Assembly: GCA_964434115.1 (NCBI GenBank)
Contig: CAYSSX010000001.1
Coordinates: 397,911-461,910, forward strand
From: an uncultured bacterium
Lineage (GTDB): Bacteria; Omnitrophota; Omnitrophia; Omnitrophales; Aquincolibacteriaceae
Direction of reading: 5' to 3'
DNA length: 64,000 nucleotides
Below the pieces are notes generated by a model that saw only the letters and a program-made list of their open reading frames with translations, had not been told where the DNA came from and searched no databases. Made by a program: the position numbers and the translations under genes. Below are positions 18,912 through 38,333 of the stretch, piece after piece (position 1 is the first letter of the stretch; the number at the start of each line of letters is the position of its first letter).

Positions 18912-19343
18912 TTAAATCAGGAGAGAACGGAAAAGGACATAGAGGGGCTCCGGTCGAACGGCTTGCCCTTCATCGGTCTGATAAGAAAAGGCGCGCAGGC
19001 CTTCGAGAAAAAGCGGTGATTCTACAGCGGGTAAAACAGTTTCGATCTGAGTGGAAGGCGCGGAAAGGACCGCGAAATCAACCTTGGAATCCGCGGAAGC
19101 ACTGCGGTGATGCAAACAGCCCTCTGTGGAACAATCCTTCGCTGCCTCTTTTGAAGCGGTCTTGGGGCAGCAGTCATGGGCGTGCGAAACCGCCTTGGTC
19201 ACAACCGCAGTCTGTTCAGCCGCGTGCGCACACGGACAAAACCCCGCCGCAGCAGCGCCGAAAACAAAAAAAAGCAGCGTGAAAACCGCTGCTTTTCGAT
19301 GGCTGTGAAACGAACTTCTAAAAAATGACCTCTGCGTTTCCAT
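18912..19343 (-). CDS. small Cys/His-rich membrane-anchored protein, copy 1 (possible metal-binding protein)
   Basis: 143 aa containing the hydrophobic segment AAVFTLLFFVFGAAAAG and the Cys/His cluster FCPCAHAAE...HAHDCCPK...CLHH. It has a paralog at 29094..29513 and sits immediately upstream of cusC. Confidence 0.5.
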   Translation of the reverse strand: METQRSFFRSSFHSHRKAAVFTLLFFVFGAAAAGFCPCAHAAEQTAVVTKAVSHAHDCCPKTASKEAAKDCSTEGCLHHRSASADSKVDFAVLSAPSTQIETVLPAVESPLFLEGLRAFSYQTDEGQAVRPEPLYVLFRSLLI

Positions 19344-19385
19344 ACTTATAGCCTACTCTTACAAAGAGGAACTGTCAATCAGCTA

Positions 19386-19617
19386 GCCGACAACCTTTAG
19401 GTTGTCGGCAACAGGTGAAAGTTAGTCACATGCCTCTGGGGACTAACTTTCATCGTACGAGCCGAAAGTCGAAGACTTGTTATCTTTCTGACCCATTCCC
19501 GACTGAAGCCTCGGGAACGGCTTTGCCGACAAGTCAAAGACTTGTCCTCTCTCTGACCCATTCCCGACTGAAGCCTCGGGAACGGCTTTGCCGACAAGTC
19601 GAAGACTTGTCGGCTGC
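19386..19617. repeat. intergenic repeat cluster: a bipartite hairpin element (19386-19461) followed by about 2.4 tandem copies of a 63-65 bp unit
   Basis: A perfect palindrome GCCGACAACCtttagGTTGTCGGC is followed by CAACAGGTGA, then the stem AAGTTAGTC / GACTAACTT with loop ACATGCCTCTGGGG, then CATCG. Tandem units start at 19462, 19525 and 19590 and each contains the TTCCCGActgaagccTCGGGAA hairpin. Confidence 0.7.
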
Positions 19618-22600
19618 CTAACAAACATCGTGGTTATGACACGTCTCGACTCCCTGGTGAGATTCCCAGGCGAGCTTATATTCACCGTTCAGGAGAATGT
19701 AGCCCAGAAGGTCATCCTTGTGAGAGGCATCGTTAATCACGTACATTGTCCCGCCTTTGCCCGTCACAGTGCCATTGCTGCCCGAATAGTAGGGACGCAA
19801 ATTAACCTCATACACGGAAACGAGATTCCCCTCTTTTCCACGTACTTCAATGCGGTATCCGCTGTTGCCAGGACCCTGTCCTGACCCGTCGGCACCGTCA
19901 CGCCCTCCGGAACCGCTCACCACAAAGGTGTAGTCCTTGGCGCTTAATCCCGAATCCTTTTCAAACTGAAAGGCCGCGAGATTGCGGATTTTCATCTTGG
20001 CCTCATAGTCCTGCGCGTGGGTTCCCATAAAAGCACCTGCCATGGAGAAGTCATGATAGGTGTAGGAATTACCCGCCGTGTTCAGAAGCGCCACGTGAAA
20101 ACCCTGCTGGGAAGGATAGTCCGGGTAAAGATCCAGAGGATAGGCTCTTTGGGTCCAGCTATAGGCCCAGGAATCCTTGCCCGAGCGGATGTTATGAAAC
20201 ATCATGCTCAGATTTCCCATATAACCATCGTACGGCGAGTCTGTGGGAGACTGGCTGAAACTCATGTTGCGAAGCTCAAACTCCGCGGCCGCCACTCCGG
20301 TTTCCGCGGCGAGAAGTTCCGCGGTCTTGAACAGAATGTGAATCACGGCTGCGCCCGAGCCGGCCATCTCAATCAGCTCACCCAAGGTCCGGTTGCCGGA
20401 AATCCTGAGAGAACTTTCTCCCTCGACGGCAGACAGAAACACCGCGCCGTCCGCTCCGAAAGTAACGCGGCTAAGCGATTGCCCGGCCAAAGACTCTACC
20501 TTGATGCCAGTCAGCTGACCGTCCGCGTTGTAAATCATACGCCCCCGGTAAGACGCTGTTTCAATCATGGAGATACGGCCCTTGCGGTCCGAATCATCCG
20601 CGTACTCATAAAACGCCACGTTCCCGGAAGGTGTAAAACCGATTTTCCGGGTGGAGGAACTGTAGGCGTAAGTCACGGCCTTTGCACTCAGCACACGCCC
20701 CTGGGCATCCTTGGTCAGCACTTGATACCCGCCAGCCGTAAAATCAATGGTTTTTCCGTCGCTCATGAGCCGGGTCCAGCCGCCGCTCTCGTTAAAAGTG
20801 TCCTTGACCCAGCCCTTGGCAAAACCCAGCTGGCCTGACAAAGCATCCGCGTCATAACGGATTTCCTTAAGAACACCGTTGGCATCGTAATCGCGCGTCT
20901 CATTGCGCATGGTCGTGGAACTGATAAACGCGGGTGAAGACCAGGTATGTCCGTTGTTGACGAACAAACCTACGTCCACGCGGTTTGACAGAATGGAGCT
21001 TCCCAGGGAAGATCCGGGCGCAGACGCTTCCTCGTGATAATCAATTTCGATTTTCACGCGTGAGCCTTCGTCGTTCAGCTTGGTAATCCGCACGTGGTCA
21101 GCGTCTCCACGAAGCACGCGCCAGTCAAATTCAAGCGGATGACCGTTCACGTCAAAGCTTGCCCCCGCGTCCACAATCATGGTCTTGGTATACTCAAAAC
21201 CTCTGTGAATCCTCGAAACCGCAGCGGGTGTGTCGTACATCTTTTCAGTTTTGTTGTCAAAATTGCCCGTGCCTCCAAAGTTTTCGTCCTCAACCTTGAT
21301 CTGGGCAAACGCGGGAATATCGTCCAACGTCATAGCATTAGCCATACGCACCATGGCCATGAAATTACCGCTGTCATTAAAAGCCCTTGGGTGGGCTTCG
21401 CCCGTCAGGTACTTATCCTCATCACCGCCCACCCGTGTCATACGGAAAATCATTTCAAGGGTCGGCATCAAAAGGCCTTTTTCCTTAAGCGTCTTCTTCA
21501 CTTCCGGACGGAAGGCCGCGAGGGTGTACAAAAGTTTGGTCACCTCATCCATTTCACTGCCCGACGAACCCTGGGAAGTCAGAAGGTAGGCGTTGTTTGA
21601 AAAATAATAGTCCACGGCATCGTGGTCAATGTGCTCCGGATACAAATACAGAGCATTCGCCCGGTACTGATTGTACGTGGCCTGCGCCCCATAGCTCGAT
21701 TCCAAAGAGCCAGGGTTTGAAGTTCCCGCGGCACTTCCGGACGTGGAGGAATTTCCGATAATGACACGGTCCGGATAAGTCGCGTATTCCGCGGCCCAGC
21801 CATCATTCATGCGGCTCAACTGCGGCAGAGAGGAAACGCCGAAGTCCGTGTGTTTGCCGTCACGGTTGTGGTAATAATCCCCCACGTTTCCGGCAGCAAG
21901 ACCCAGTGCGGCTTGAGCTTTAAGGAACGTGCAGACTTCGGAATTCCCCGCGCAGATCGCGGGTGTCTTAACATCCAGGCTCATTTGCTGCTCCGCGCTA
22001 TAGCCCTCAATATCCTTGGCGGAAAACGTAATCACATACTGCCCGGCGTGCGCGGGTTCCGGCGTCCAGTCAAACTTTCCGTCGCTGGTCAAAGTCATGC
22101 GCGCCGGCGTATTAACCTTCACTCCGTCCCTAAGAATTTCCTTAATGCTGAAGGTCACGGCCCCGCCGTCAGGATCAGAGGCCTCAAGCACAGCGCTGAC
22201 TTTCGCGGCCAAAGATTCCACGGGCAGAACCGATGCGCCAGGGATGGATTTGAACACCGGGACATGCCCGGCCGGTATGATTTCAAACGCGATCACCGCG
22301 GCCTCTGAAATTTCTTTCCCGTCATTGACGGTAAACGAAAACTCATCGGTCCCGCTGTAGTCAGCGTCCGGTTTGTACGTAAACGCGCCGGTCTCGGCAT
22401 TGATTTCAAGCCTGCCGTGTTTGGGCTGAGAGGCTGCGGCGAAGGAGAGAACGTTTCCGTCCTCGTCACTGCCCGTGACAAAGCCGGTGATCTCGCCATT
22501 CTGATTCACTTTAAAACTGGCCGCATTGGCCACAGGTCTATGGTTCTGCGGCGCGTCCGGTTTATAAGTAATCGCGCGTATTTCACTGCGGCCTATATTC

Positions 22601-25600
22601 CCGGCCTCGTCTTTATGCTCGATAAACAACCCTTCGTTGAGGCCTTCCACAAGGCTGAATGTTTTCTCCATCTCGTTTCCGCCGTCAAGGGTATAAAGCA
22701 CCTTCAGCGTAGCTTGGTTCGTTGTTTCAGGAATATCGCTCGTGATCTTGATCGCGGGCGGAATTGTGTCGCGGCGGATACTCACCACCACTTCGGACTT
22801 GTTTCCCGCGTTATCCACGGCTGTGATCGTGTGCCGGTTATCGCCTTCCTGATCCAGCGAAACCTTTAACTCCTTAGCCTCGCCATCCAGCAGGTACTTC
22901 ACGATCTCGCTGAGGCGATTGCTCAAAGAGACATGCTCCACACCTGAAATTTTAGGCGCGATGGTATCACGCGTAATCACAATGCGGATTTCGGTCTCGT
23001 TACCCGCTCCATCCACTTCTTTAATGACATGACGGTTTTCGCCTTCCTGATCAAGCGGAACCTTCAACTCCTTGGCCTTACCGTCCACCAGGTACTTCAC
23101 AACCGCGCTATCCTGGTTGGTCAAGGACACGTGTTCCAGCCCGGTAATTTCAGGGGCCTTGGTGTCTCTTACCACTAGAAGTTCGATGCGGCTTTCATTC
23201 CCGGCCTTATCCAGCGCCGTGACCGCGAGCTTGTTATCCCCTTCGTTCTGGAGCGCGAATTCCTTACGCATGGCTTCGCCATCCACGGTGTAGCTGACCA
23301 CAACGCTCATCTGGTTGGTCAAAGACACATGCTCAATGTTCGCGATTTCAGGCGCAATCGTGTCCAGCGTTACCTTGAATTCAAACAGGCCGATATTCCC
23401 CGCTGCGTCCACGACCTGAATTTTAAGTTTGTTTTCACCCTCGGTTAAATCAAAATGCGCGTGAAGAATTTCCCCGTTGGCGCCTGTGGGATCCAAAACA
23501 TAATCCACCACCAGGTGTTTCTGATTGGTCAGAGCCGGAATTTCGGAAACCACTTTAATCTGCGGCCCGGCATTGTCCATGAGCACAGAAAGGACCCGCT
23601 CGGAAATATTACCCGCTTCGTCCTTGGCTTCGATCCGGAGTTCATTCTTTCCAGCCGCGAGCTGGAAGGTTTTCTCCATTTTGACCCCATCCGCCGTGTA
23701 AATCACAACCAGACTCCGCTGATTCGTGACTTCCGGAACATCACTTAATATCTCAATCGCGGGCGCCTGGGTATCGCGCACCACGATAAGCGCTATTTCG
23801 CTTTTGTTTCCCGCCTCGTCCGACGCGGTAATCAAAAGTTCATTTTTACCTTCGTTCGGGAGATCAAACGCCTGCTCTCTCGAAACACCGTCCAGCAGGT
23901 ACTTCACCACGGTCTTCAACTGATTGGTTAAAGACACATGCTCCACGTTTGTGATTTCGGGGGCTTTGGTATCCAGCGTGACGTCAAACTCGTAAAAGCC
24001 AATGTTACCCGCCTCATCCATGGCTTCAATCTTGAGTTTGTTTTTGCCTTCCGTTAATTTAAACTCCGCGCGGCGTTTCTGCCCATTGGACATTTGCGGA
24101 TCCACAATGTACTCAACAACAAGCTGCTCCTGGTTAGTCAGGGACGGAATCTGGGAAATCACCTTGATCACCGGCGCCTCATTGTCCATAAGCACCGCGA
24201 AATTCATTTCCGCGGCATTGCCCGCTTCATCCTTGGCCGCAATTTGAAGTTCATTCATTCCCGGCTTGAGTTCAAAACGCTTTTCCATTTCCTTTCCATC
24301 CACTTTATAGAGGACGGACAGGACCTGGGCGTTTGTGATTTTAGGAATCACACTCGTAATCGCGATTTCCGGAGCCTTGGTATCCCGGACAATCTCAATC
24401 ACAACTTCGGTCTGGTTCCCGGCTTCATCCGACTCCGTAATCACGTGCCGGTTCTTGCCTTCCTGATCCAGCGCGAGCTTCAATTCCTTGGCCTTTCCAT
24501 CCACCAGGTACTTCACAAGCGCGCTGAGCTGATTGGTCAAGGACACATGCTCGACACCCGAAATTTCGGGCGCCTTCGTATCCAATGTTATTTTGAATTT
24601 ATACGAACCCTTATTCCCTGCCGCATCCATGGCATCAATCGAGAATTCGTTCCCGCCTTCTTTCAAATCAAATTCGGCCTTAAGAACGGCACCCGTGGCG
24701 GAATTGCCATCCACCAGATAATTCACAACAAGATGCTTTTGGTTTGTAATCGACGGAATCTCGGAAATCACGCGGATGACCGGCGCCACATTGTCCATGA
24801 TCACAAAAAGACTGAGTTCCGCGGCATTCCCTGCCTCATCCTTGGCCGCTAGGCGAAGCTCGTTTTTTCCGGGCGCGAGCTCGAACTTCTTTTCCATCTC
24901 TTTTCCGTCCACGGTGTAAAGCACGGTCAACACCTGGGCGTTCGTAATTTGAGGGATCTCGCTCTTGACCGCAATTTCAGGCGCCTTTGTGTCACGCCGG
25001 ATCATAAGCGCTCTTTCGATCTTGTTCCCGGCTTCGTCTGAAGCCGTAAGCACAAAATGGTTTTCACCCTCTTCCGGAAGTTCAAAGGTCTGTTCCATGG
25101 GGATCCCGTCCAGCAGGTACTTCACCAGCGCCTTGAGCTGGTTGGTCAGGGACACATGCTCGACGTTTGTGATTTCGGGGGCTTTGGTATCCAGCGTTAT
25201 TTTAAATTCATAAACACCGACATTGCCCGCTTCATCCTTGGCTTGAATCGTGCGGGTGTTTGGGCCTTCCTCTAAATCAAACTCCGCGCGCAGTTTTTGG
25301 CCATTGGTCATTTGCGGGTCAATCACATACTCCACCACAAGGTGTTTCTGGTTGGTCAAAGCGGGAATCTGGGAAAGAACCCGGATCACAGGCGCCTCAT
25401 TGTCCCGGAGCACCCCGAAATTCATGACAGACATATTCCCAGCCTCGTCCTTGGCCGTGATCTGAAACTGATTCATTCCGGGCTTAAGCTCAATCTTCAT
25501 CTCCATGTCTTTTCCATCCACAGCATAGAGCACGGTCAAAACCTCGGCATTGGTGACTTTAGGAACATCGCTCCTCAACTTGATCACAGGCAGAGTGGTA

Positions 25601-28071
25601 TCCCGCGTAATGACGAAAGCCATTTCACTTTTGTTTCCCACCTCGTCTTGTGCTGTAATAACAAAGTGGTTTTCCCCTTCTAGTTCGAGCTTGAACGATT
25701 GCTCTTTGGCAATTCCATCCAGCGTGTAAGTCACCATAACTTCGAGTTTATTGGTCAAAGCCGGAAACTTTAAATTGGCGATCACCGGCCCTTCCTTATC
25801 CATGGCGTTTGCAATGCGCTTAATTAAAATCGCAAGGTCCCGGTCGTCAGCCGCTCCATCCTGGTTAAGATCAAGAAGAGCTGCCGTTTCCTTGGGCAGA
25901 TAAGCCAGAACACTCAGCGCCTGCGCGTAACCTGTTTTCGCGGCAGTAAAGTCATCATTGTTGGTAATCCCATCGCGGTTTATATCCGCAGAGAACGTGC
26001 CGTCCGCCTTAAGACTGATCCTTTTGGCGAATTCCGAGGCCACTTCAATTTCATGGCGAAGCGCGCCCTGCAAGGCCAGCGCTTCTTCGATCAAGCCCCG
26101 TTCAGACACAATCGCGTTCTTCAGCCCATCAATCACAGCATCGACATTAACTGCCGGCCGGCCCATGGCCCGAAGGGAAAGCGCCGGATGTTCAGGCACC
26201 TTGAACGCCGAGGGATCTGTTCCGGGAACCAAAGCTGCAGCAATTTTGTTCAACACCTCAACATACGCCATCAGGGCTTTAATGTCCTGCTGGTCCAGAG
26301 CCGCGTCACCCTTCATCCAATTCATGATCCACGTCACACCGTCAATGTCCTGCTTGGCCTTGGCATGAATTCCAGCGGCCGCTTCCAGAATCTCCAGCAT
26401 TCCCGGGATGTTTTTATCAAAACCATTGATCTTCTCAAAAAGCCCGCCTTCTTCACTTGCCAGCGGATTGATAACACCCGCGATTCTCTCAGCCTCTTGA
26501 TTTTTTGAAGCCGCGGATTGTTGAAACTGCGAGATCTCGGCAGACGCGGCATTGATCATCGCCGCCACTTTCGCGCGCAGGGCTTCAAGCTCGCCTTGAT
26601 TATCGATGACCGGCTTCAGACGGATCACACCGTCGGCCATGAGCTCAATCTCCCACGCCTTACCGCCGATTTTCACCTTCCGGTTTTCCGGAAAGTTTTC
26701 AACAAGAACCTGATCCTGCTGCCAGGTTTTGCTCACCGGGTCCTGATACCAGGAACTAAAACTGAGCCCGTACACAGGCTTGCCCATGCGTCCATCCGCC
26801 ATGTAAGTGCCCGCTGCCGTGATGCCATTTTTGTTCGAATAAGTCATACCGTATGACACGCTGTAATTCCGGCCCTCCACCGCAACACTCTGCCAGTTCT
26901 TGAACCGGAGCTTTTTCCATTGATCAGGCGTGCTTCCGCCGTTGCTGTTCACCACAATGTCCACGTTTTGATAATCGTTTTTATTGCGGACAAGACGCGG
27001 CACATAAATTCCGGCGTCATTGCGCACCGATTCAACACTGTAAAGCTGGTTGTTCCACGCGGCCGGAAGACCCGCGTAAGTCACGGCGGTCTTCATAAAA
27101 ACCGAGGAGTGTGATTCCATCATTTGTCCGAGTTCCTTATAATCAGGGTTCCCGGATTCCAGGCTCGCTCTTACTTTCAGATACAAATCCTTGATGCCTT
27201 GAATCTCTTCACCGCCATAAAGCGAAACCGAGGTCTTGACCGGTTTGCCATTAGCGTCCTGACTGCCGATGTCTGTCCAGATGGAATACTGCGTGACCGG
27301 CCTGCTGCCCGGCCCCGCGCCCGCCATAGTCAAAGAGTTGTTCACTGCCCCTGTGTCTGCATATAAAGACGGGTTGTAGGTAGAACGGTTCACGGAAATC
27401 GTGTGATCCATCCACCGGCCCTGCGCGTCATAAGTAAAAGAGCGGCGGTAAAGCGAGTCGGAGGAGCCATAGCGCTCAGAGCTTGACGCGTACTCAATGT
27501 AGCTCAAGCGCTGTTGTGAAAATCCATAGCGCTGTTCATAGTTGTAACCGGTCTGATTCATGATCACGTCAAAACGTTTCAAGGCAGTCTGCGAGCCTGA
27601 CTTTTCAACAAGGATATTCCAGCTATACCCATTGGTGACATTGTCGATCTCGATGCTCTGCGTAGCTTCGTCAAACTGGCCGGTGTAGGTCTGCTTTTGA
27701 CCGTATTGCGTCAGCGTGACACTGGCCTTCCCGCCTTCCTTGACTTCCACACTCAGAAAATCTTTTCCATCCGGGGAAACGGGTGCCTTGGCGGAAAAAG
27801 GACGCGTTGCCGGCTTCGGGGGTTCACTCATGGAAATAGGGTTGTCATCCAGGGAAAGCGTGTGGAGATCTGCAGGCGGGATCGTGTCCTGCGGCTCCGT
27901 GTTTTTCTGCTGTGTTGGGTCCGTTGTGGCGGATTTCTCCTGCACAGGGGTAATAAGCCCGGTCGGAGAACCACCATCCGCCAGAGCTGCCGGCATGACC
28001 GGAACTGAAAAGAAGGCCAGGCTTACCGCGAGAAAGCCCGCCAGAACGCGATTTTCGAAGTGGTTTTTCAT
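19618..28071 (-). CDS. giant cell-surface adhesin-like protein with dockerin-like Ca-binding segment, tandem Ig-like domain repeats and YD-repeat-like region
   Basis: Start MKNHFENRVLAGFLAVSLAFFSVPVMPAALA at 28071 with a signal peptide and a GAGAGGGA ribosome-binding site. A dockerin-like pair DINRDGITNNDD ... DLNQDGAADDRDL is encoded at about 25810-26000. At least 15 tandem roughly 100-aa repeats of the type TLDTKAPEI..VEHVSLTNQ / IRVISEIP.LTNQKHLVV.Y are encoded at about 22700-25750. The C-terminal third contains YD-repeat-like motifs (YDANGVLKEIRYDA..., KDAQGRVL...). Confidence 0.8.
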   Translation of the reverse strand: MKNHFENRVLAGFLAVSLAFFSVPVMPAALADGGSPTGLITPVQEKSATTDPTQQKNTEPQDTIPPADLHTLSLDDNPISMSEPPKPATRPFSAKAPVSPDGKDFLSVEVKEGGKASVTLTQYGQKQTYTGQFDEATQSIEIDNVTNGYSWNILVEKSGSQTALKRFDVIMNQTGYNYEQRYGFSQQRLSYIEYASSSERYGSSDSLYRRSFTYDAQGRWMDHTISVNRSTYNPSLYADTGAVNNSLTMAGAGPGSRPVTQYSIWTDIGSQDANGKPVKTSVSLYGGEEIQGIKDLYLKVRASLESGNPDYKELGQMMESHSSVFMKTAVTYAGLPAAWNNQLYSVESVRNDAGIYVPRLVRNKNDYQNVDIVVNSNGGSTPDQWKKLRFKNWQSVAVEGRNYSVSYGMTYSNKNGITAAGTYMADGRMGKPVYGLSFSSWYQDPVSKTWQQDQVLVENFPENRKVKIGGKAWEIELMADGVIRLKPVIDNQGELEALRAKVAAMINAASAEISQFQQSAASKNQEAERIAGVINPLASEEGGLFEKINGFDKNIPGMLEILEAAAGIHAKAKQDIDGVTWIMNWMKGDAALDQQDIKALMAYVEVLNKIAAALVPGTDPSAFKVPEHPALSLRAMGRPAVNVDAVIDGLKNAIVSERGLIEEALALQGALRHEIEVASEFAKRISLKADGTFSADINRDGITNNDDFTAAKTGYAQALSVLAYLPKETAALLDLNQDGAADDRDLAILIKRIANAMDKEGPVIANLKFPALTNKLEVMVTYTLDGIAKEQSFKLELEGENHFVITAQDEVGNKSEMAFVITRDTTLPVIKLRSDVPKVTNAEVLTVLYAVDGKDMEMKIELKPGMNQFQITAKDEAGNMSVMNFGVLRDNEAPVIRVLSQIPALTNQKHLVVEYVIDPQMTNGQKLRAEFDLEEGPNTRTIQAKDEAGNVGVYEFKITLDTKAPEITNVEHVSLTNQLKALVKYLLDGIPMEQTFELPEEGENHFVLTASDEAGNKIERALMIRRDTKAPEIAVKSEIPQITNAQVLTVLYTVDGKEMEKKFELAPGKNELRLAAKDEAGNAAELSLFVIMDNVAPVIRVISEIPSITNQKHLVVNYLVDGNSATGAVLKAEFDLKEGGNEFSIDAMDAAGNKGSYKFKITLDTKAPEISGVEHVSLTNQLSALVKYLVDGKAKELKLALDQEGKNRHVITESDEAGNQTEVVIEIVRDTKAPEIAITSVIPKITNAQVLSVLYKVDGKEMEKRFELKPGMNELQIAAKDEAGNAAEMNFAVLMDNEAPVIKVISQIPSLTNQEQLVVEYIVDPQMSNGQKRRAEFKLTEGKNKLKIEAMDEAGNIGFYEFDVTLDTKAPEITNVEHVSLTNQLKTVVKYLLDGVSREQAFDLPNEGKNELLITASDEAGNKSEIALIVVRDTQAPAIEILSDVPEVTNQRSLVVIYTADGVKMEKTFQLAAGKNELRIEAKDEAGNISERVLSVLMDNAGPQIKVVSEIPALTNQKHLVVDYVLDPTGANGEILHAHFDLTEGENKLKIQVVDAAGNIGLFEFKVTLDTIAPEIANIEHVSLTNQMSVVVSYTVDGEAMRKEFALQNEGDNKLAVTALDKAGNESRIELLVVRDTKAPEITGLEHVSLTNQDSAVVKYLVDGKAKELKVPLDQEGENRHVIKEVDGAGNETEIRIVITRDTIAPKISGVEHVSLSNRLSEIVKYLLDGEAKELKVSLDQEGDNRHTITAVDNAGNKSEVVVSIRRDTIPPAIKITSDIPETTNQATLKVLYTLDGGNEMEKTFSLVEGLNEGLFIEHKDEAGNIGRSEIRAITYKPDAPQNHRPVANAASFKVNQNGEITGFVTGSDEDGNVLSFAAASQPKHGRLEINAETGAFTYKPDADYSGTDEFSFTVNDGKEISEAAVIAFEIIPAGHVPVFKSIPGASVLPVESLAAKVSAVLEASDPDGGAVTFSIKEILRDGVKVNTPARMTLTSDGKFDWTPEPAHAGQYVITFSAKDIEGYSAEQQMSLDVKTPAICAGNSEVCTFLKAQAALGLAAGNVGDYYHNRDGKHTDFGVSSLPQLSRMNDGWAAEYATYPDRVIIGNSSTSGSAAGTSNPGSLESSYGAQATYNQYRANALYLYPEHIDHDAVDYYFSNNAYLLTSQGSSGSEMDEVTKLLYTLAAFRPEVKKTLKEKGLLMPTLEMIFRMTRVGGDEDKYLTGEAHPRAFNDSGNFMAMVRMANAMTLDDIPAFAQIKVEDENFGGTGNFDNKTEKMYDTPAAVSRIHRGFEYTKTMIVDAGASFDVNGHPLEFDWRVLRGDADHVRITKLNDEGSRVKIEIDYHEEASAPGSSLGSSILSNRVDVGLFVNNGHTWSSPAFISSTTMRNETRDYDANGVLKEIRYDADALSGQLGFAKGWVKDTFNESGGWTRLMSDGKTIDFTAGGYQVLTKDAQGRVLSAKAVTYAYSSSTRKIGFTPSGNVAFYEYADDSDRKGRISMIETASYRGRMIYNADGQLTGIKVESLAGQSLSRVTFGADGAVFLSAVEGESSLRISGNRTLGELIEMAGSGAAVIHILFKTAELLAAETGVAAAEFELRNMSFSQSPTDSPYDGYMGNLSMMFHNIRSGKDSWAYSWTQRAYPLDLYPDYPSQQGFHVALLNTAGNSYTYHDFSMAGAFMGTHAQDYEAKMKIRNLAAFQFEKDSGLSAKDYTFVVSGSGGRDGADGSGQGPGNSGYRIEVRGKEGNLVSVYEVNLRPYYSGSNGTVTGKGGTMYVINDASHKDDLLGYILLNGEYKLAWESHQGVETCHNHDVC
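22700..25750 (-). repeat. coding tandem repeats (roughly 300-bp units) inside the adhesin gene
   Basis: The roughly 100-aa domain units recur with nucleotide-level similarity, which is also visible as recurring antisense ORF fragments at 23455, 24094 and 25297. Confidence 0.7.
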
Positions 28072-28260
28072 GATTGAGATCCCTCTCTGTCTTCCTGGAA
28101 TAATTTCGATTTCCATCACCTGCTTAACAACTTTTAACAGCCTATTAATAAGTCTGTTTTAAAACCTTAACACCACATTCCAAGAGATGCAAAAAAGAAG
28201 CAAAAAAAGAGCAAAAAATAGCAGCAAAAACAGTCTGCATGTTATGAATGTATGTTTAAG

Positions 28261-28375
28261 CCGAAACCGATTTCGGGTTTCGGCAATAGGTGAAATAGCT
28301 GAAATGGCTTTTCATTTCAGCATAAGGTGAAGTGAAAACTCCGGCCTTAGGGAGTTATCACTTCATCGCGCGAGG
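28261..28375. repeat. bipartite hairpin repeat element (variant with a class-2 second hairpin)
   Basis: Perfect palindrome CCGAAACCGAtttCGGGTTTCGG, then CAATAGGTGA, then the hairpin GCTGAAATGgcttttCATTTCAGC, then ATAAGGTGA, then the stem AGTGAAAACTCC / GGAGTTATCACTT with loop GGCCTTAG, then CATCG. Confidence 0.65.
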
Positions 28376-28421
28376 AGGCCTGCTGAAGATAGGATTTTTC
28401 GGGACTGGCGGGGCAGAGACA

Positions 28422-28456
28422 AAAAAAACGCCGGGGAAAAATCCCCGGCGTTTTTG
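28422..28456 (-). terminator. bidirectional rho-independent terminator downstream of the ZraP-like gene
   Basis: An A-run (28422-28429), stem CGCCGGGGA, loop AAAA, stem TCCCCGGCG, then TTTTT (28452-28456). It therefore reads as hairpin followed by a U-run on both strands. Confidence 0.65.
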
Positions 28457-28479
28457 GTGGTCGTAATGAACGAACTGGG

Positions 28480-28986
28480 TTACTTTTCAGTCTTGGCCCA
28501 GATCTCCTTAGCCTTGTTCATTTGCCCCTCATTGAGAACGGCCCTCAGCTTGGCGTAATCAGCGAGTGTCGCTTTGGCCGAGGTCGCCCAACCGGCTGAA
28601 GCTTGATCAATGAACGCATTTAAAGCCGCCATATCCAGCACGGGTTCTGACATTTTATCCATCAGATCCATCTGGAAAATTTCCATCTCCGCCTTGGAGC
28701 GGATCATGGACTTCTTGGTCGTGCTCTTAATGGCCTTGATCTGGGAGACCTGATCGTCAGAAAGCCCGATCGCTTCCTTGTTGGAAAGGAAGAATTTTGC
28801 CTTCTTCATGATTTTCGCGGCAATAGGACATTCCCCCTCGCTTGAACAATCGTCCCCTTGATCGCACCCTTTCTTGTCATGAAAGGAGCAGCGCCCGCCT
28901 TCACATTCATGATTCGCAAACGCGGGGGCTCCAAGAAGAGACAACATCATCAACAAACCCAGCAAAAATCCAATCGACTTTTTCAT
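28480..28986 (-). CDS. ZraP/CpxP/Spy-family periplasmic protein with an N-terminal Cys-rich metal-binding segment
   Basis: Signal peptide, then a Cys/His cluster (HECEGGRCSFHDKKGCDQGDDCSSEGECP), then two LxxxQ helical motifs (LSDDQVSQIKAI and LNEGQMNKAKEI) typical of the ZraP/CpxP heavy-metal-resistance family. Confidence 0.6.
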   Translation of the reverse strand: MKKSIGFLLGLLMMLSLLGAPAFANHECEGGRCSFHDKKGCDQGDDCSSEGECPIAAKIMKKAKFFLSNKEAIGLSDDQVSQIKAIKSTTKKSMIRSKAEMEIFQMDLMDKMSEPVLDMAALNAFIDQASAGWATSAKATLADYAKLRAVLNEGQMNKAKEIWAKTEK

Positions 28987-29093
28987 AAGACTTTCTCCTT
29001 TAGGTTAATAATTACGTGGAAGATTAGACGAGCAGCCGAGATTGCTTTCCCATCTCGGCTGAGTTTTAAATAAACGGCTTTTTTGGGAGAATC

Positions 29094-29513
29094 TCAAATC
29101 AGGAGAGTGCGAAAAAGCAGAAAAATCGGCTGCGGCGGAAGCACATCCCTGCCGGAAACCGGAGCAAAAGAAACCTGAGGAACTTGAAAAACTGCAGGCA
29201 CTGAATGCTCTGCGGCTGAAAACGCATTTAAAGAAGCACTGGGAACAATCCCTTGAAAGCGCCCGGCTTGTTCAGCCGCCGAACTGTGGTAAAAGCACTG
29301 GCCGGCGCAATCATTCCCCGCTTTCGCAGTCTTTTTGGCGCAGCAGTCATGCCCGGAAACCGCCATTTGATGGCCTTTCGGAGCTGTTTCAGACGCGTGC
29401 GCGCAGCGGCAAAACGCCGGGACAGCCGTGAAAATAAAAAAAAGCAGCGTAAAAATCGCTGCTTTTCGCTGGCCGCTAAACCGGGATTTAGGAAAGGGTT
29501 TTATCGCTTTCAT
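29094..29513 (-). CDS. small Cys/His-rich membrane-anchored protein, copy 2 (paralog of 18912..19343)
   Basis: Start MKAIKPFPKSRFSGQRKAAIFTLLFFIFTAVPAFCRCAHASE. It shares the RKAA(V/I)FTLLFF, C.CAHA.E, HDCC.K and C-terminal (I/L)(F/Y)(L/V)LFR(T/S)LLI blocks with copy 1. The listed ORF extends to 29549. Confidence 0.5.
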   Translation of the reverse strand: MKAIKPFPKSRFSGQRKAAIFTLLFFIFTAVPAFCRCAHASETAPKGHQMAVSGHDCCAKKTAKAGNDCAGQCFYHSSAAEQAGRFQGIVPSASLNAFSAAEHSVPAVFQVPQVSFAPVSGRDVLPPQPIFLLFRTLLI

Positions 29514-29553
29514 AGTGGACAGGCTAACCCTGTTCTTAAAACAAGTCAAGCAG

Positions 29554-29831
29554 CCGATTAGTTTGAGGGCAAGCCGAGGCTTGCCCCTTACTAATCGGCA
29601 ATAGGTGAGATGTTAATCTCATGCACCTGGGGATTAACATCTCATCGTCGAGCCAGCTGAAATAGCTTTTCATTTCAGCACTAGGTGAAGTGAAAACTCC
29701 GGCCTTAGGGAGTTATCACTTCATCGCACGAGGAATAACTGTAAGCTTCAGGCGGGAATGCAGCCGGTAAGCACCGCTTACCGGCAACAGGTGAATATTA
29801 CTCTCACGCTTCTGGGGAGTAATATTTCACC
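29554..29831. repeat. dense array of bipartite hairpin repeat elements (two class-1 units and one class-2 unit)
   Basis: Palindrome 29554-29597; a class-1 unit at 29598-29646 (CAATAGGTGA, stem GAGATGTTAATC / GATTAACATCTC, loop TCATGCACCTGGGG, CATCG); hairpin 29655-29678; a class-2 unit at 29679-29731; palindrome CCGGTAAGCaccGCTTACCGG at 29764-29784; a class-1 unit at 29785-29831 (CAACAGGTGA, stem ATATTACTC / GAGTAATAT, loop TCACGCTTCTGGGG, TCACCG). Confidence 0.7.
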
Positions 29832-30062
29832 GCCCAGGAAACGGCGTAAAGTGAAGTGAATCCTTTTATTGAATTTGGGTCGTTTGGGAGGGGTACCTAA
29901 TTTTAGTTGTTTGTTTTTGCAACCCAAACATCCTTTTGTTTCAGCTGAACAGCCCCCCTCCTCCTTGTGTAAAACAACGGATGTGTTATCGTTTACATGA
30001 GAGTTGCTCATAACCTTCTGTGAGTGGCCGAAGTTCCAATCATAAAATACCCGGGGGTTCAC

Positions 30063-30749
30063 ATGAAGCACTTCAAACTTTTTTCTCTTAATCTTGTTTT
30101 TTGCATGTCCATTCTTTCCCTGCCTCTTCACGCTCAAGGGGAAATGGGCTTTGTTGAACAAGGTGCGGAGCCAGTTCAGCCTGTTGCCACGGTAGAGAAC
30201 AGCGCGCCAGAGACTTCAACGGACCAGCCTACGCAAGGAGATGCCTTTTCTGATTTTATGCAGCCCGGTGCCTTAGCAGCGGCATCTGAGGATCCCATGG
30301 AAGGGACTGCAGAAAATCCGCCTGCAAACAATCCCAACAAAACTGAAACAGTCACAGTTGCACCGGACGGCACAAAGACCGTTATAACGGAGGAAATAGA
30401 AAAGGACAGCCAGGGCAATCAGAAGTCTCGAACGCTTTCAACCTCAGTTTACAACAGTGAAGGAACTCTTACGCATTGGGAGATGAGTTCTTTCGATGAA
30501 AATAATCAATTTGTTTTCAAAAGCTGGGATGACTTTAACAGTCAGGGATGGTTGATGGAACAAGGGACGGAATATGCTGATGGGAGCAAGGAAGTCACCA
30601 ACTACACCTATGATCCTGACGGCTATGTCATCGAGATCACTCAAGTGAAAGTCAAAGCAAACGGTGAGACTACTACTAAAATCGACAATCCGAAGAATTC
30701 GCTGTCCGCGAAAGAACTTATCATTAAGCAAAGTAAATCGAAAAAATAA
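30063..30749 (+). CDS. secreted hypothetical protein at the left end of the lower-GC island
   Basis: Start MKHFKLFSLNLVFCMSILSLPLHAQG gives a signal peptide. The protein is rich in Thr/Asn/Glu and has no catalytic motifs. Its GC content is lower than the flanking chromosome. Confidence 0.5.
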   Translation: MKHFKLFSLNLVFCMSILSLPLHAQGEMGFVEQGAEPVQPVATVENSAPETSTDQPTQGDAFSDFMQPGALAAASEDPMEGTAENPPANNPNKTETVTVAPDGTKTVITEEIEKDSQGNQKSRTLSTSVYNSEGTLTHWEMSSFDENNQFVFKSWDDFNSQGWLMEQGTEYADGSKEVTNYTYDPDGYVIEITQVKVKANGETTTKIDNPKNSLSAKELIIKQSKSKK

Positions 30750-30830
30750 TCCAGAGTGCGCGGGAGGTTTTGGCCATTAAAACTTACCTGTCCCGTGCGA
30801 ACACTGAAGCCTCAAACTTCAGGGAGCCTG

Positions 30831-30874
30831 CCGAAAATAAGAACTTTTCGGCTTTGGTACCCGGTACCTTTTTT
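30831..30874. terminator. bidirectional terminator between two convergent genes
   Basis: Hairpin CCGAAAAtaagaacTTTTCGG (30831-30851), then palindrome GGTACCcGGTACC (30856-30868), then TTTTTT (30869-30874), which overlaps the stop codon of the minus-strand ATPase gene. Confidence 0.5.
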
Positions 30875-33203
30875 ACACATCAGCTGCCCCGAAATACATA
30901 TCTTTAAAACTCAAACGGGATGTATTTAAACCATATTTTTGAAATTTATATCTCATAAAGGCAGACATTTTATCCTCGTGAGTTGATAAAAATATCTGTC
31001 GGTCAGAAAATTCATTCCTTAGCAAATCAACCAAACTCGATATGTTTAACTCATCAAGCGTCTGAACAGGATCATCAATAAACAACATTTTATTCTGAGA
31101 GTATCTTTTATTTAGAGTTAAAGTAAAAGCTAAAATCAAAACCGCTAATTGCCCGGAACTCATTGTGAAAATTGCATCATAGGATTTCTTGGGGTCGGGT
31201 AAAAACCTAATGCCATTTTTATCAGAAATAAATAACCCCATCCCCTCTTGGCAGTCCTGAACAATCCGCCCCGAATATAAATGAAATAATATTTCAATAT
31301 CAGCAATAATTTTTCTTTGATACTCCAAAAGGGATTTCTCGTAAATCCTCTTAAGCTTATTTAGCCCATCCTTCATCTTTGAGGCATTCTCGAAGCGCCC
31401 CTGACTTTCATCATATTCTCTCTTTCGATCTTTTAAAGATTTACTCTGATGTAATGAATACTGCCATTTAATGTACTCTTTTTTCTCATCAATATCTTTA
31501 ATACTTATTTCCCTAACCAATTCTGATTTCTCATTAAAAAATTTCAGAAAAATGTCGGCAAAATACGGCTTTATCTTTGTCGCGTCTAAAGGTCGCTTTT
31601 GTTCTACTAATGCTTTTTTTAGAGATGCTAACTTTGAATCCAAATTCGATTTGGGCTCATCCAAATCCTGAACAATAATACCCTTTTGACGCAATTGCTC
31701 ACCAATAGCTATAAGTGTAGATTGATTGCGAACCGCAGCTTGAAGCCCAGCTACAAAAACCTCATCAATGGGGTTGCTAATTAAATAATCATTCAACATT
31801 TTCTTAATGGGGATAATGAACTCGGCCTCGAACCTTTCAACCAGTGATTTTAAATCTTTACCGGATTCTTCCGTTAATTTTCGAAAGCGATTCTGTTGAA
31901 CTTCAATTTGAAGCTTTAATACATCTAATGACACCCAGTCATGTCCGCACATCGGGCATTCTGTTTCTTTGCTTAATTCCGTAAAAGCAGTAAATATTCG
32001 AGCGAATGAGCTTCTGGAGTCTTCTAACTTAGCCACAATTTCTGAAAATTTATTTAGTGACGCGGATTGCTCAGCAATATTTTGCTTTACGCGATCATAT
32101 GCTTTAAAATCAATTTGATGAGATAAAACAGATTCAACCCTTGCTAAAACCACATTCTTGTCCAACGCAAATTTTAAGGTACCCTTATCAAACTCCGCCA
32201 AGATTCTTTTGATCTCCTGACGAATACTCAATTTATTCACATAAAGTTCAACATCATTTAAATGCTTCGAATACAAAATTATTTGTTTTAGAGAGGCCTC
32301 CTGACCGATCAAACCATCTAATTCGCGGTTCCTTTTCTCCTGTTCGAAAATATCAATATTACCTATAAGTGATTTAACTTTTTCCAACAAGCCATCTTCG
32401 CCAATCCAGCTAGCATACTGACCCTCTTTAAATTGCACTTGTTGTCTATCCCAATCAAAGTCGCCCCACGCGAAAAGCTTCGCGTATGCCACCTCGCGAA
32501 TATCACCTAACATCTCCGCCTCAATCGCTTCTATTTCTTTTTTTAAGATTTCTAGTCGGCTAGATTCAGCAGCGCCGCACAGTTCGCCGATCTTCGAAAT
32601 CGAATCTTTAATTTTATCTACTTGATTTTGGAAGCTAAGAGTATTGAACAAATAATCAATAGCATCTTTTCTTTCTCGATCTTTACATTTCAGCAAAGCA
32701 ATATTCTCTTCCTGCTCTACGTAATGGAGAAAACGAAAATTCTCACGGTAATTTAACCCTAACAACTCTTTCAAATAATCATTTTCATTCTTTACCAAAT
32801 TGCCTTCTGTAGCTTCAAAAGCTGTCAGTTCATATAATGGAGAGACGAATTCAGATATCCTCGTCTTTTGAGATAGCTCCAAACGAGTACTCTTCCTCAT
32901 CAATATTCTATCCTTACCATTAGCTTCGATTACGGCTTTGATAATAAGGTCACCGTCCTTGCGCCTACTATTTAAATAAGGATTTTCAGTAAAACTCTCA
33001 CGCCCATCTGTTGCAAGCTTGGCCCATTCTTCATACCTACGAATTTTCCCAGTAAGGAGTAGCTCCATAGCGTCAAAAAATGTGGTTTTCCCAAAGCCAT
33101 TCGGACCATCAAAAATAATAAAGTCCGAATCGTTAAGGTCAACCGAAAACGTTTGAAAAACCTTAAAATTTTCTATGTGAAATTTTCTAATTTTAATGCC
33201 CAT
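30873..33203 (-). CDS. SMC/Rad50-like ABC ATPase with a long coiled coil and a central CPxC hook (LmuB-like, Lamassu/ABC-3C-type defence ATPase)
   Basis: Walker A GPNGFGKTT; ABC signature MSSGQ; Walker B MLFIDDP; H-loop STHE. About 500 aa of coiled-coil sequence lie between the head halves. ETECPMCGHDW is encoded at about 31935-31967, at the midpoint, like a Rad50 zinc hook. The preferred start is MGIKIRKFHIENFKVF at 33203; the listed ORF starts at 33218. The gene is low in GC. Confidence 0.75.
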   Translation of the reverse strand: MGIKIRKFHIENFKVFQTFSVDLNDSDFIIFDGPNGFGKTTFFDAMELLLTGKIRRYEEWAKLATDGRESFTENPYLNSRRKDGDLIIKAVIEANGKDRILMRKSTRLELSQKTRISEFVSPLYELTAFEATEGNLVKNENDYLKELLGLNYRENFRFLHYVEQEENIALLKCKDRERKDAIDYLFNTLSFQNQVDKIKDSISKIGELCGAAESSRLEILKKEIEAIEAEMLGDIREVAYAKLFAWGDFDWDRQQVQFKEGQYASWIGEDGLLEKVKSLIGNIDIFEQEKRNRELDGLIGQEASLKQIILYSKHLNDVELYVNKLSIRQEIKRILAEFDKGTLKFALDKNVVLARVESVLSHQIDFKAYDRVKQNIAEQSASLNKFSEIVAKLEDSRSSFARIFTAFTELSKETECPMCGHDWVSLDVLKLQIEVQQNRFRKLTEESGKDLKSLVERFEAEFIIPIKKMLNDYLISNPIDEVFVAGLQAAVRNQSTLIAIGEQLRQKGIIVQDLDEPKSNLDSKLASLKKALVEQKRPLDATKIKPYFADIFLKFFNEKSELVREISIKDIDEKKEYIKWQYSLHQSKSLKDRKREYDESQGRFENASKMKDGLNKLKRIYEKSLLEYQRKIIADIEILFHLYSGRIVQDCQEGMGLFISDKNGIRFLPDPKKSYDAIFTMSSGQLAVLILAFTLTLNKRYSQNKMLFIDDPVQTLDELNISSLVDLLRNEFSDRQIFLSTHEDKMSAFMRYKFQKYGLNTSRLSFKDMYFGAADV

Positions 33204-33900
33204 TTTGATCACCTTCAAAAAACGGCCATAACAATTTGTAAAATTCGCTTGGCTTCATATTTTTTATATCACCCGATGAGACTTTATCGAGTACCGTCAT
33301 TAGCGATTTATTAACGTCTAGCATTCCATCTTTAGCCAAGGCCTTGTCATGCTCCTCAAGTAATGATTGCAGCCCTTGAGACTCACCAATATTAATTTTT
33401 ATGAAAGGCAATTTAATTGCTAATCGATAGATTAAAGATTGCCATGTTTTTACATAGGGATCATTTTTATAGTCATCAAATATTTGCTTAGAAACAATGC
33501 CGTCCTCTATGAATTTCGCGATGTCTCTTTCTGCAATTTGGTTTTGTAATTGCTGCAACTCTTTAGCAGCATAACCCAAAACATACTTTTTAAAAAAATA
33601 CGGGTCTTCCTCTATTTTCATTTTATTTTTTTTAAACTGTTCGCGCGGCACGCTTCCATCTGTTTCCCACAGCACCAACATCGAAAGATTTTTATCAACT
33701 CCAGGTTCAGAGCAAATTTTCTTACACTCGTTAAAATTAAAAGCCTGTTGCTCTAAAACCGAATCGATTTTGTCGGTTACTTTTATTACAAGCCAATACT
33801 GTTCGCGATTTTCGTTGGCACTCTCACAGAAAAGTCCGTTTTTAAATTCGAAAGTTTTAAATCCGTACCGCTCGAAAAGGATTTTTGTCAGCTCAAGCAT
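33193..33900 (-). CDS. small protein encoded between effector and ATPase (LmuC-like/middle component), function unknown
   Basis: 235 aa. It overlaps the upstream gene by 8 nt and the downstream ATPase by about 11 nt, consistent with a three-gene operon. It is low in GC and has no catalytic motifs. Confidence 0.5.
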   Translation of the reverse strand: MLELTKILFERYGFKTFEFKNGLFCESANENREQYWLVIKVTDKIDSVLEQQAFNFNECKKICSEPGVDKNLSMLVLWETDGSVPREQFKKNKMKIEEDPYFFKKYVLGYAAKELQQLQNQIAERDIAKFIEDGIVSKQIFDDYKNDPYVKTWQSLIYRLAIKLPFIKINIGESQGLQSLLEEHDKALAKDGMLDVNKSLMTVLDKVSSGDIKNMKPSEFYKLLWPFFEGDQNGH

Positions 33901-35176: not shown

Positions 35177-35179
35177 TAT

Positions 35180-36436: not shown

Positions 36437-36457
36437 ATTATCCTTCGCACATCTCGG

Positions 36458-37357
36458 TCAAATGATGGTTGCGTTTACTCTATCTATAAGCTGTTTCTTT
36501 AAATCATTCTCTTCTTCCCATAAAATGTGACTGAATTGCCGCGTATCAAAATGCAGGGTCTCGCCTTTTTTGCAAACCCAGATTACTTCTTTACCGATTC
36601 CTTTTGCATACCCCGCTTCGTAGTATGCACTCGGACGTTCACCGCTTAACTCAGCAACTACGAACTTGCTCTTTTTTATACCCGAAATTATCAGATTTGT
36701 TACATCATCGTTTGTTTGCTCACCTTTAACACGATATGCCTCATAGCCACAAGTGGCCAGCGCTTCAGCAATCTTTTCATAGGCAAAATCATAATTAGGT
36801 GAAAAATTCATAGCAACAAAACACAATCTCGCATTTACATTTATTTTTTCTAAATCATAAAAATGCCGCCATCCCGTCATTGTTAACCTGTATTCGAATA
36901 TAGAGCTTGCTGCACTTTTCGATCTACCCTCGAACAGTTTTTCAGACATAAGATATTTAAGAATATCTGACAATTCTTGTGCGCTGGGTGAAAAAGTCAG
37001 CGAATAATCATTATCGCGATCAATATCTATATATTGTCCAAACGCATTACTCTTTTTGCCAATATATGTAACTATTTTGTCAATTTTATCCGGAACTTTG
37101 CGGGGTATATCCGCACCATTTAGAATACCGCTGATACTTTCCGTAGTAATAAGAATAGTATTCGCGTTGCGCTCTGTTCGCCACCGCAGCACGCCAGAGA
37201 TTTCAGCTCTTCGCTCTGTTACTGAGCCTGCTAAGCAAGATCCCGTTATAGAGTACTTACCGCATCTTTTACATTCGATATGAAAGCAATCCCTTAGAGG
37301 CTCACGATCGAATTTCGAGTATTTCTTTCCGCAAAACGGACAGTTGTTCTCAGTCAT
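36458..37357 (-). CDS. zinc-ribbon protein with a C-terminal nucleoside 2-deoxyribosyltransferase/Rcl(DNPH1)-like domain
   Basis: The N-terminus has two Cys pairs (CPFCGKKY...CFHIECKRCGKY). The C-terminal domain aligns with the Rcl/NDT fold: LCFVAMNF...Y...I, then FVVAELSGERPSAYYEAGYAKGIGKEVIWV (compare VVAEVTQPSLGVGYELGRAVALGKPILCL), then WEEENDLKKQLIDR. Confidence 0.6.
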   Translation of the reverse strand: MTENNCPFCGKKYSKFDREPLRDCFHIECKRCGKYSITGSCLAGSVTERRAEISGVLRWRTERNANTILITTESISGILNGADIPRKVPDKIDKIVTYIGKKSNAFGQYIDIDRDNDYSLTFSPSAQELSDILKYLMSEKLFEGRSKSAASSIFEYRLTMTGWRHFYDLEKINVNARLCFVAMNFSPNYDFAYEKIAEALATCGYEAYRVKGEQTNDDVTNLIISGIKKSKFVVAELSGERPSAYYEAGYAKGIGKEVIWVCKKGETLHFDTRQFSHILWEEENDLKKQLIDRVNATII

Positions 37358-37408
37358 TATCAGCCTTCGTTTTGAACGTTATCACTTTCCAAAAGCACCG
37401 GGTTCAAC

Positions 37409-38198: not shown

Positions 38199-38333
38199 TT
38201 GAGAAGAGAAGTTAAAAACTCTGACGCTGCGCTATTTCCTATACAGCGGTGCGCTGTTCCCAGCAGATGCATCTGGGAACAAGCTTTAAGGAAACAGCGT
38301 TGCCCACAGGGGGGAATAAAGCTAGAAGCTGCT

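Follow-up and report, generated by a model that had tools for sequence, protein, structure and literature searches.

Is a family of hairpins lying between the genes of an uncultured bacterium a structured RNA that acts on its neighbours, or a repeat that moves among them as DNA? The question is raised by a 64-kb stretch of contig CAYSSX010000001.1, from an uncultured member of the Omnitrophales, the whole of which is called the window here. A sequence-only reading of this DNA had described bipartite hairpin elements with covarying stems and conserved loops at four intervals, and had taken them for structured RNA or protein-recognised hairpins in the 5' regions of minus-strand genes. We refer to these elements as family 1. 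In our view they are probably small, non-coding, non-autonomous and modular DNA repeats, recognised by their structure like REP/BIME sequences or the miniature elements derived from IS200/IS605, and transferred in single-stranded form by an enzyme whose gene lies elsewhere in the genome.

A covariance model, R1, was built from 21 units and run over the whole 64-kb window with filters off. Five complete family-1 units of ~75 nt were found in this way, together with a truncated one and two hairpins of the A type that stand alone, and above noise there was no other family-1 match. The five complete units all lie on the plus strand and score 66-84 bits (E-values 2e-14 to 7e-19, 128 kb searched). 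On the minus strand R1 scored merely 14-28 bits at the same sites, and the element is therefore directional. Single units also fold, as DNA and on either strand, far better than their shuffles (z -6.6 to -9.2); z-scores of this size, together with E-values this low, exclude a chance origin. Read on the plus strand, a unit consists of an A, hairpin A (palindrome GCNG...CNGC), ANN, AGGTGA, hairpin B, TCAYCG and usually a 3-nt tail. Hairpin A, at the 5' end, is a variable palindrome of the form AGCCGAAA...TTTCGGC. Hairpin B has 15-17 pairs, with a conserved base, GGTGA/TCATC, that includes a fixed G·T pair, a variable and A/T-rich upper stem, and a loop of 9-13 nt of the form ...G(C/T)NNC|(T/A)GGG (here and below a bar marks a break or junction). 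The tail after TCATCG varies from 0 to 4 nt, TAC being the most frequent.

The contents of the four intervals were as first described, and 29655-29729 was added as a separate fifth unit. U1 (19385-19458; R1 76 bits, E 6e-17; DNA fold -23.5 kcal/mol, z -8.1) carries hairpin A as GCCGACAACC/GGTTGTCGGC, then AAC-AGGTGA, a hairpin B with stem AAGTTAGTC and loop ACATGCCTCTGGG, and TCATCG-TAC. The truncated unit U2a (28259-28296, plus strand, 22 bits) is made of hairpin A and AAT-AGGTGA-AAT (AATAGGTGAAAT), without hairpin B, and is followed by U2b (28297-28371, 81 bits), which has the class-2 loop GGCCTTAG. U3a (29552-29654, model match 29552-29650; 66 bits) stands head-to-tail with U3b (29655-29729, 84 bits), again with a class-2 loop. 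In U4 (29762-29835, 67.5 bits) the closing helix is GGTGA/TCACC, with G-C where G·T is usual. Of the two solo hairpins, AGCCGAGATTGC..CATCTCGGC (29034-29060, plus strand, 19.8 bits) lies between the gene for a 168-aa protein and the second of two genes for small Cys/His proteins, and the palindrome GCCGAAAA..TTTTCGGC (30830-30852, assigned to neither strand, 20 bits on the minus strand) marks the left edge of a low-GC island.

Relatives of these units were found by pattern scans of GTDB genomes and metagenome contigs that required AGGTGA, a CTGGG loop and TCATC(G). Seventeen loci came from the GTDB genomes, 16 of them chance matches without stems and one, L009 (in a metagenome-assembled genome of an uncultured bacterium), real. 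The metagenome scan gave at least 120 loci and, among the matches listed, only L042, L054, L064, L079 and L095 were real. These six are the true relatives; L001 is a short contig identical to the window. L054, L064, L079 and L095 represent three contigs of one metagenome, L064 and L079 being on the same 20-kb contig. The pattern scan of viral contigs gave two chance matches only, and blastn of plasmids with the U3-U4 array gave no match. R1 adds 27 complete units in 44 kb of the related loci, and in total at least 45 family-1 copies, all of them intergenic, are present in ~110 kb of related sequence. Synteny with the window is seen in L054, at ~70-77% nucleotide identity, and in part also between L009 and L079; the group of carriers is therefore small and its genomes are related to one another.

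Pairing in hairpin B was analysed over 29 modules from the window and the related contigs, with 500 shuffles and a slid partner as controls. In these copies 97.1% of the cells were paired, against 81.5% in the shuffles and 34-59% when the partner was slid, and two-sided changes were found at 11 of the 17 pairs, amounting to 68 compensatory cells, a number reached by none of the 500 shuffles. Hairpin A was 98% paired, with two-sided changes at 6 of its 8 pairs. These data support the view that the hairpins are under selection for pairing, and they bear out the compensatory stem changes of the sequence-only reading. Across all loci more than 20 different hairpin-B stem variants occur, but the statement in that reading that the stems differ completely from copy to copy is too strong for the window: there the class-1 stems AAGTTAGTC, ATGTTAATC and ATATTACTC have about two thirds of their positions in common, with three compensated differences, and the class-2 units U2b and U3b are 95% identical.

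The same reading had taken a G-T pair as a hint of the strand that folds. The second pair of GGTGA/TCATC is G·T in 26 of the 29 copies and G-C in two, and a count over all stems gives 31 G·T or T·G pairs against a single A·C. This asymmetry shows which strand pairs best, but it does not discriminate between RNA and single-stranded DNA. An RNA made from the plus strand, either a cis-regulatory structure or a small RNA that controls the adjacent metal-resistance and adhesin genes, would account for the strong covariation, the conserved loops, the stable fold and a wobble that is G·U-compatible on exactly that strand. We nevertheless hold such an RNA to be highly improbable. Comparison with Rfam 15 gave no match at the gathering score over the whole window, and sub-threshold noise at E <= 10 in the element regions; the flanking genes are unrelated from one locus to another, and orthologous genes of relatives lack the element. 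Nor is there a plus-strand open reading frame (ORF) or a consensus promoter nearby. The arrangement of the copies, described next, speaks against it as well, since nesting and truncation would wreck a functional RNA.

Head-to-tail arrays occur in every contig, and some copies lie inside others. On the minus strand of L079, from 4252 to ~4040, the nest is three deep: the outer unit is split in its loop (..CATGCTTCT before the insertion, TGGGGAGCAATATT TCATCG after it) by a second unit, whose own loop is split (..GGCTTCT before, AGGGAATTATCAAT TCATCG after) by a third, which is complete. At L009 1-370 (nest 79-370) unit X2 contains X3 and X4, and X4 contains X5, the separated halves of X4 being perfectly complementary; another nest with matching separated halves is found at L009 7715-7880. 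The split site in the hairpin-B loop is constant, between ..(T/A)TC(T) on one side and (T/A)GGG or TGAA on the other. Elsewhere units directly follow a neighbour's 3' end (..TCATCG(TAC)(T)|AGC..), one interrupts a hairpin-A loop, and orphan 3' halves (xGGG-stem-TCATCG) trail many arrays. These arrangements show that new copies preferentially join existing ones, in one orientation, either at their ends, forming arrays, or in the hairpin-B loop, forming nests up to three deep. Small palindromes also occur within hairpin-A loops, GGGCAAGCC..GGCTTGCCC in U3a (window 29567-29586) and GGACAGCT..AGCTGTCC in L141 (~3630-3665), and the hairpin-A loop is therefore an insertion site too, for another kind of short palindrome.

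Comparison of corresponding sites shows how copies come and go. At the common boundary ..aaacagtt|, L079 begins straight with one element; in L009 a truncated copy of that element is preceded by one more unit, 76 nt long from the initial A through ..TCATCG, and the comparison places the 5' end of a unit at the A of AGC. In L064 and L095 a 92% identical flank leads into the same hairpin A and AGA-AGGTGA and then into unrelated hairpin-B modules. Upstream of the gene for a 2833-aa protein, L054 has hairpin A, a complete hairpin B and a class-2 unit; the window has at this site the same hairpin A, then AGGTGAAAT, then the class-2 unit, without the first hairpin B. The hairpin B of U3a, 1.3 kb away from the orthologous window site, is identical to the one at L054:5997-6049. 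Modules recur elsewhere: the hairpin-B stem of U1 is found again in L095:541-614, and hairpins A nearly identical to the solo one at 29034-29060 in L064:925 and L095:11164. At six loci of relatives that encode the neighbouring 168-aa protein with 67-83% identity, family-1 units are absent. The differing orthologous sites, the hairpin-B swaps, the nesting and the patchy occupancy together indicate ongoing turnover. The suggestion in the sequence-only reading that copies might mark insertion sites, as miniature inverted-repeat transposable elements (MITEs) do, proved productive. These loci show an element that multiplies and rearranges at the DNA level in a few related genomes of uncultured bacteria.

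Turnover also bears on the idea that these are REP-like elements domesticated by the host, with little or no ongoing mobility, that serve in mRNA 3'-end protection, in insulating the transcription of co-directional genes, or as replication-polarised nucleoid or topology sites. Roles of this kind are credited to REPs (PMC3733652), and the strictly intergenic placement between co-directional genes, hairpins that are stable on both strands and a polarity that follows replication would all fit. However, orthologous sites differ in their elements, a hairpin B has been exchanged recently between flanks that are 92% identical, and the nesting and patchy distribution mean ongoing turnover; furthermore, the units in the window are antisense to all flanking genes, and the conserved pair turns into an A·C mismatch on the strand of the mRNA. 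We think domestication with little mobility unlikely. It is compatible with a mobile origin in any case, as it concerns the use of the element and not where it came from.

Several break points cluster at the AGGTGA core. Two units of L079 are preceded by a 5' fragment that ends exactly at AGGT, and the hairpin-B swaps start after AGGTGA. Together with a structure that is kept while the sequence varies, with directionality and with head-to-tail arrays, this recalls the folded sites of a site-specific recombinase such as the integron attC sites, hairpin A, AGGT|GA and hairpin B being exchanged as modules in the manner of cassettes. We consider it quite unlikely that family 1 works in this way. 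The core sites RYYYAAC/GTTRRRY are absent, the stem base being GGTGA/TCATC instead; the units abut, with no ORF cassettes between them; Pfam searches of the window and the related loci showed no integrase or tyrosine recombinase encoded nearby; and exchange of the attC type would not be expected to place insertions in a loop. Slippage or deletion between adjacent copies, whose longest conserved block is AGGTGA, could also account for the break points there.

The orientation of the units follows replication. The sign of the GC skew in these contigs does not change with the strand of the genes, and the skew therefore reflects replication and not transcription. The strand that reads from A to B is the C-rich strand in all six contigs of native GC content (window, L009, L042, L054, L064 and L079), which hold ~12 independent arrays. 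No consistent target duplication was found at ~30 junctions. The 3 nt before a unit match its 3' tail at 3-4 of ~25 junctions (TTC(T), TAC), so few that the tail was treated as mostly intrinsic and variable. The contigs compared show an element whose orientation is tied to replication and that lacks both terminal inverted repeats and a consistent target duplication. A MITE of the ordinary kind, descended from an insertion sequence with a DDE transposase, would likewise be small, non-coding, repeated and intergenic, but it would have terminal inverted repeats and a target duplication. The ends of family 1, AGCCGAAA... and ...TCATCGTAC, do not form a pair of inverted repeats, the ~30 junctions are as just described and the orientation is strictly polarised, so that we give this origin almost no credence.

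How might such an element move? Hairpins A and B would be the structures by which a nuclease or recombinase, made from a gene at some other place in the genome, recognises the element, and only those copies that keep their stems would remain mobile, giving rise to the covariation. Since no transposase or recombinase gene was found, we infer the class of this enzyme: the best candidate would be a single-stranded DNA transposase of the HUH/Y1 type, of the RAYT or IS200/IS605 kind, whose substrate would be the single-stranded DNA that folds at replication forks. Similar sites for cleavage and joining, many of them C|T or C|A, would be available to it in the exposed hairpin-B loop and at the ends of the element. 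Many junctions are indeed of this form: ..TTC|T.. in the loop, ..TAC|(T)AGC.. at the ends, and C|(T)AGC at the flanks.

A number of observations weigh against such single-strand mobility. Pfam searches of ~65 ORFs, from the 64-kb window and ~44 kb of related loci, revealed no transposase, recombinase, integrase, reverse transcriptase or Y1 gene. The 3' boundary is variable, falling right after TCATCG or 3-4 nt later, and the left flanks tend to end in C or CT (TTC, TAC, ATC, AGC, GCC) with no fixed 4-5-mer from which a conserved target, as in IS200/IS605 elements, could be defined. There is a conflict of strands: the IS608 rule puts the active strand on the lagging-strand template, which is G-rich, and on that strand the conserved pair is A·C. 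The units lack the GTAG/CGTC tag of REPs: hairpin A has (C/T)(T)A before it and ANNAGGTGA after it, hairpin B has G and TAC, TCC or CTC after it, and CGTC occurs in ~7 of 29 tails and GTAG in one. Nor do they form the inverted pairs of REPINs and BIMEs, native contigs having a single orientation and head-to-tail copies only, and head-to-tail dimers are rare in REP families. The sample comprises ~45 copies from ~4 genomes. Finally, part of the scrambling (orphan halves, fragments ending in AGGT, swaps after AGGTGA) may come from slippage or recombination between copies and not from transposition.

A sister family, family 2, shares hairpin A. Its common build is a hairpin A of the type AGCCGACAA..TTGTCGGC, then A(A/C)(A/C)(G/C)CC, GTTCCCGA..TCGGGAA and TGG..GAGA(A/G)AGA. 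In the window it forms an array of 2.3 tandem units of 65 nt at 19459-19615 on the minus strand (Tandem Repeats Finder: period 65, 93% matches), the first base of which lies 3 nt past the stop codon of the 2833-aa protein gene; here the unit reads A-type hairpin AGCCGACAAGTC..GACTTGTCGGC, AAAGCC, hairpin GTTCCCGA..TCGGGAA and TGGGTCAGAGAG, and R1 matches it partially on the minus strand at 19554-19615 and 19489-19550. A further unit, at 38140-38211 on the plus strand (R1 31 bits, fold z -6.9), stands at the right edge of the low-GC island and is orthologous to L054 ~5830-5760. The segment 28372-28420 (plus strand, ..TTTTTCGGGACTGGCGGGGCAGAGAC) is probably a degraded remnant of a family-2 3' end, recognised by eye against L054 ~600-650 and with no scored match; it directly precedes a bidirectional terminator (28424-28455), and in L054 an intact family-2 unit stands before the same terminator. 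Other family-2 copies are present in L054 and L141. As hairpin A occurs in both families and also solo, it is a module common to the two.

All units of the window lie between minus-strand genes and are antisense to every flanking gene. These genes include that for a small Cys/His protein (18912-19343), directly upstream of a CusC/CusB/AcrB-type efflux operon, that for the 2833-aa repeat protein (19618-28119), with internal repeats of 609 nt (203 aa) and no Pfam match at either end, that for the 168-aa protein (28480-28986) and the second Cys/His gene (29094-29512). The two paralogous Cys/His-rich proteins have no match in Pfam. At each of their genes a hairpin unit, U1 or U3a, abuts an apparent -35 box at a near-equal distance. 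By eye, the 5' ends of U1 and U3a are 2-6 nt upstream of TTGACA/TTGACT boxes (2-3 nt from TTGACT for U3a), and these boxes lie 17 nt from TAGGCT/TAGCCT, which are a few bases from the ATG; a consensus promoter scan did not call them. If they are promoters, U1 and U3a are outside the transcripts. The claim that the copies occupy the 5' regions of minus-strand genes had to be corrected: the units are placed between co-directional genes, downstream of one and upstream of the apparent -35 box of the next, and not in a 5' untranslated region; for an RNA acting on these genes this would mean that the units are not part of the minus-strand transcripts. AGGTGA had also been likened to a Shine-Dalgarno sequence, which we reject, as no plus-strand ORF follows it and the ATG of the loop is missing in many copies.

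Elsewhere the company is different. In the related contigs the neighbours are katG, a thiopurine methyltransferase (TPMT) gene and genes for a helix-turn-helix regulator, a LexA-like peptidase, a membrane protein and restriction-modification enzymes, and the units may be sense, antisense, upstream or downstream with respect to them. An ORF of 283/313 aa beside the arrays of both L079 and L009 encodes a multi-pass membrane protein, and was rejected on this ground as the mobilising enzyme. Nested and arrayed copies beside unrelated genes, together with the lack of an Rfam match, leave a gene-linked RNA unsupported; of the two alternatives offered by the sequence-only reading, structured RNA or protein-recognised hairpin, it is the second, with its MITE-like character, that stands.

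Arrays coincide with gene-order break points and with the edges of two defence islands. L054 and L143 have the order Cys/His gene, 168-aa gene, liv ABC-transporter operon and 2833-aa gene. In the corresponding part of the window (28376-42986) the liv operon and the block of the 168-aa and Cys/His genes have swapped places, so that the liv operon is on the other side, and 7-8 kb of low-GC island lie between U4 and the family-2 unit at 38140. The break points of gene order between the window and L054/L143 are all in clusters of hairpin elements, and the repeats may have served there as recombination substrates or landing pads. A second island, in L095, has family-1 units on both sides that point in opposite directions; in no other place were both orientations seen. 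The arrays may in this way influence genome plasticity in the lineage, which is uncultured and possibly of the PVC type.

The low-GC island of the window (30000-38140; 37-41% GC against ~54%) is absent from the syntenic contig L054. It encodes an ABC-3C defence system (an SMC-like ATPase at 30873-33218, MComp1 and CTD1), a DUF2130 protein and a nucleoside deoxyribosyltransferase-like protein, and has family-1 units to its left and a family-2 unit to its right. The island of L095 (1-11425; 40% GC) is of the restriction-modification and defence kind, with a Dcm methylase, an NgoFVII-type endonuclease, Z1, Vsr, RES, Mrr and NERD. Within the Cys/His ORFs, at 29439-29467 and 19269-19297 on the minus strand, a perfect 11-bp hairpin followed by T8 (GAAAAGCAGCG..CGCTGCTTTTTTTT) lies 45-75 nt past the ATG, in the most conserved stretch of the paralogues (81% over 67 nt), and has the score of an intrinsic terminator; it may act as an attenuator or leader, or be no more than the coding sequence of a hydrophobic signal peptide. 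The window further holds three giant minus-strand ORFs, 6575-12706 (2043 aa), 19618-28119 (2833 aa) and 46039-63897 (5952 aa). No tRNA or tmRNA was found in its 64 kb, and among plasmid records the best match of its PntB is planctomycete, at 64%, which hints, though weakly, at a PVC-type lineage.

What looked like a covarying regulatory RNA is thus better explained as a selfish or domesticated DNA repeat, a distinction that pipelines for the discovery of RNA motifs need to make. The mobilising enzyme, if found, would offer a tractable case of DNA recognition directed by fold. Less likely, and rather doubtful in our opinion, is a bolder view in which family 1 belongs to an undescribed class of replication-polarised single-strand hairpin elements, recognised purely by their fold as attC sites are, landing by preference in the exposed loop of their own hairpin and exchanging A and B modules between sister families, with an enzyme that is neither a classical RAYT nor an IS200 TnpA. 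We found no description of this element in the literature on nested or loop-targeting bacterial repeats, and the combination of traits seen here (arrays that are head-to-tail only, nesting in the own loop, two hairpins with a 5' module common to both families, more than 20 fully paired stem variants and strict replication polarity) was not found described for REP, BIME, PATE or attC.

Among the systems compared, the dRS3/NIME repeats of Neisseria, a CGTC-1 REP family, are likewise modular intergenic mosaics of small palindromes that form large clusters and act as recombination targets. They differ from family 1 in sequence, structure and taxon, and no IS110-type enzyme or phage link was seen in the present loci. 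The family-2 hairpin TTCCCGA..TCGGGAA bears what we take to be a superficial resemblance to the dRS3 ends. Integron attC sites are also recognised by their fold, with a conserved stem base and a variable upper stem and loop, and are directional and arrayed head-to-tail; family 1, in contrast, has no R''/R' core consensus, no gene cassettes and no integrase, and it receives insertions in its loop.

The resemblance to IS200/IS605 elements (IS608, ISDra2 and the PATE-type MITEs) consists of unlike sub-terminal hairpins at the two ends, the lack of terminal inverted repeats and of a target duplication, and a specificity for strand and orientation that is polarised with replication. For IS608 and ISDra2, TnpA is described as working on a single strand, with sub-terminal hairpins as its recognition structures and the lagging-strand template as its target (PMC3333891; PMC6006769). 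In family 1, however, the hairpins abut the ends (0-4 nt), whereas in IS608 the cleavage sites are ~10-19 nt from the hairpins, beside guide sequences; no complementarity was seen between the ANN spacer and the tail that would make an IS608-style pair of guide and cleavage site. Contrary to the IS608 rule, the best-pairing strand is C-rich, and no cognate full-length insertion sequence with tnpA and the same ends was seen in the loci compared.

REP/BIME sequences, finally, differ from family 1 in that the latter is a bipartite unit of two unlike hairpins and a conserved linker, with a much longer hairpin B and with nesting in its own loop; a Pfam search that covered the window and ~44 kb of related loci showed no RAYT gene. 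Family 1 lacks defining traits of every named family compared here; it is therefore not a member of any of them and is best described as a variant of the structured extragenic repeats. It has in common with REP/BIME that its copies are short extragenic palindromes, present in large numbers and clustered in mosaic arrays, with complementary stem variation and tolerance of G·T pairs, and that the proposed mobilising enzyme would be encoded elsewhere in the genome. In REP families, too, complementary stem changes are known, and REP dimers have been found inserted within palindromes (PMC3733652). On folded single-stranded DNA of REP/BIME sequences TnpAREP cuts at C|T, and it does so at several positions on the 5' or 3' side of the hairpin; this variable cleavage has been proposed by the authors of that work as the source of BIME variants (PMC3333891).

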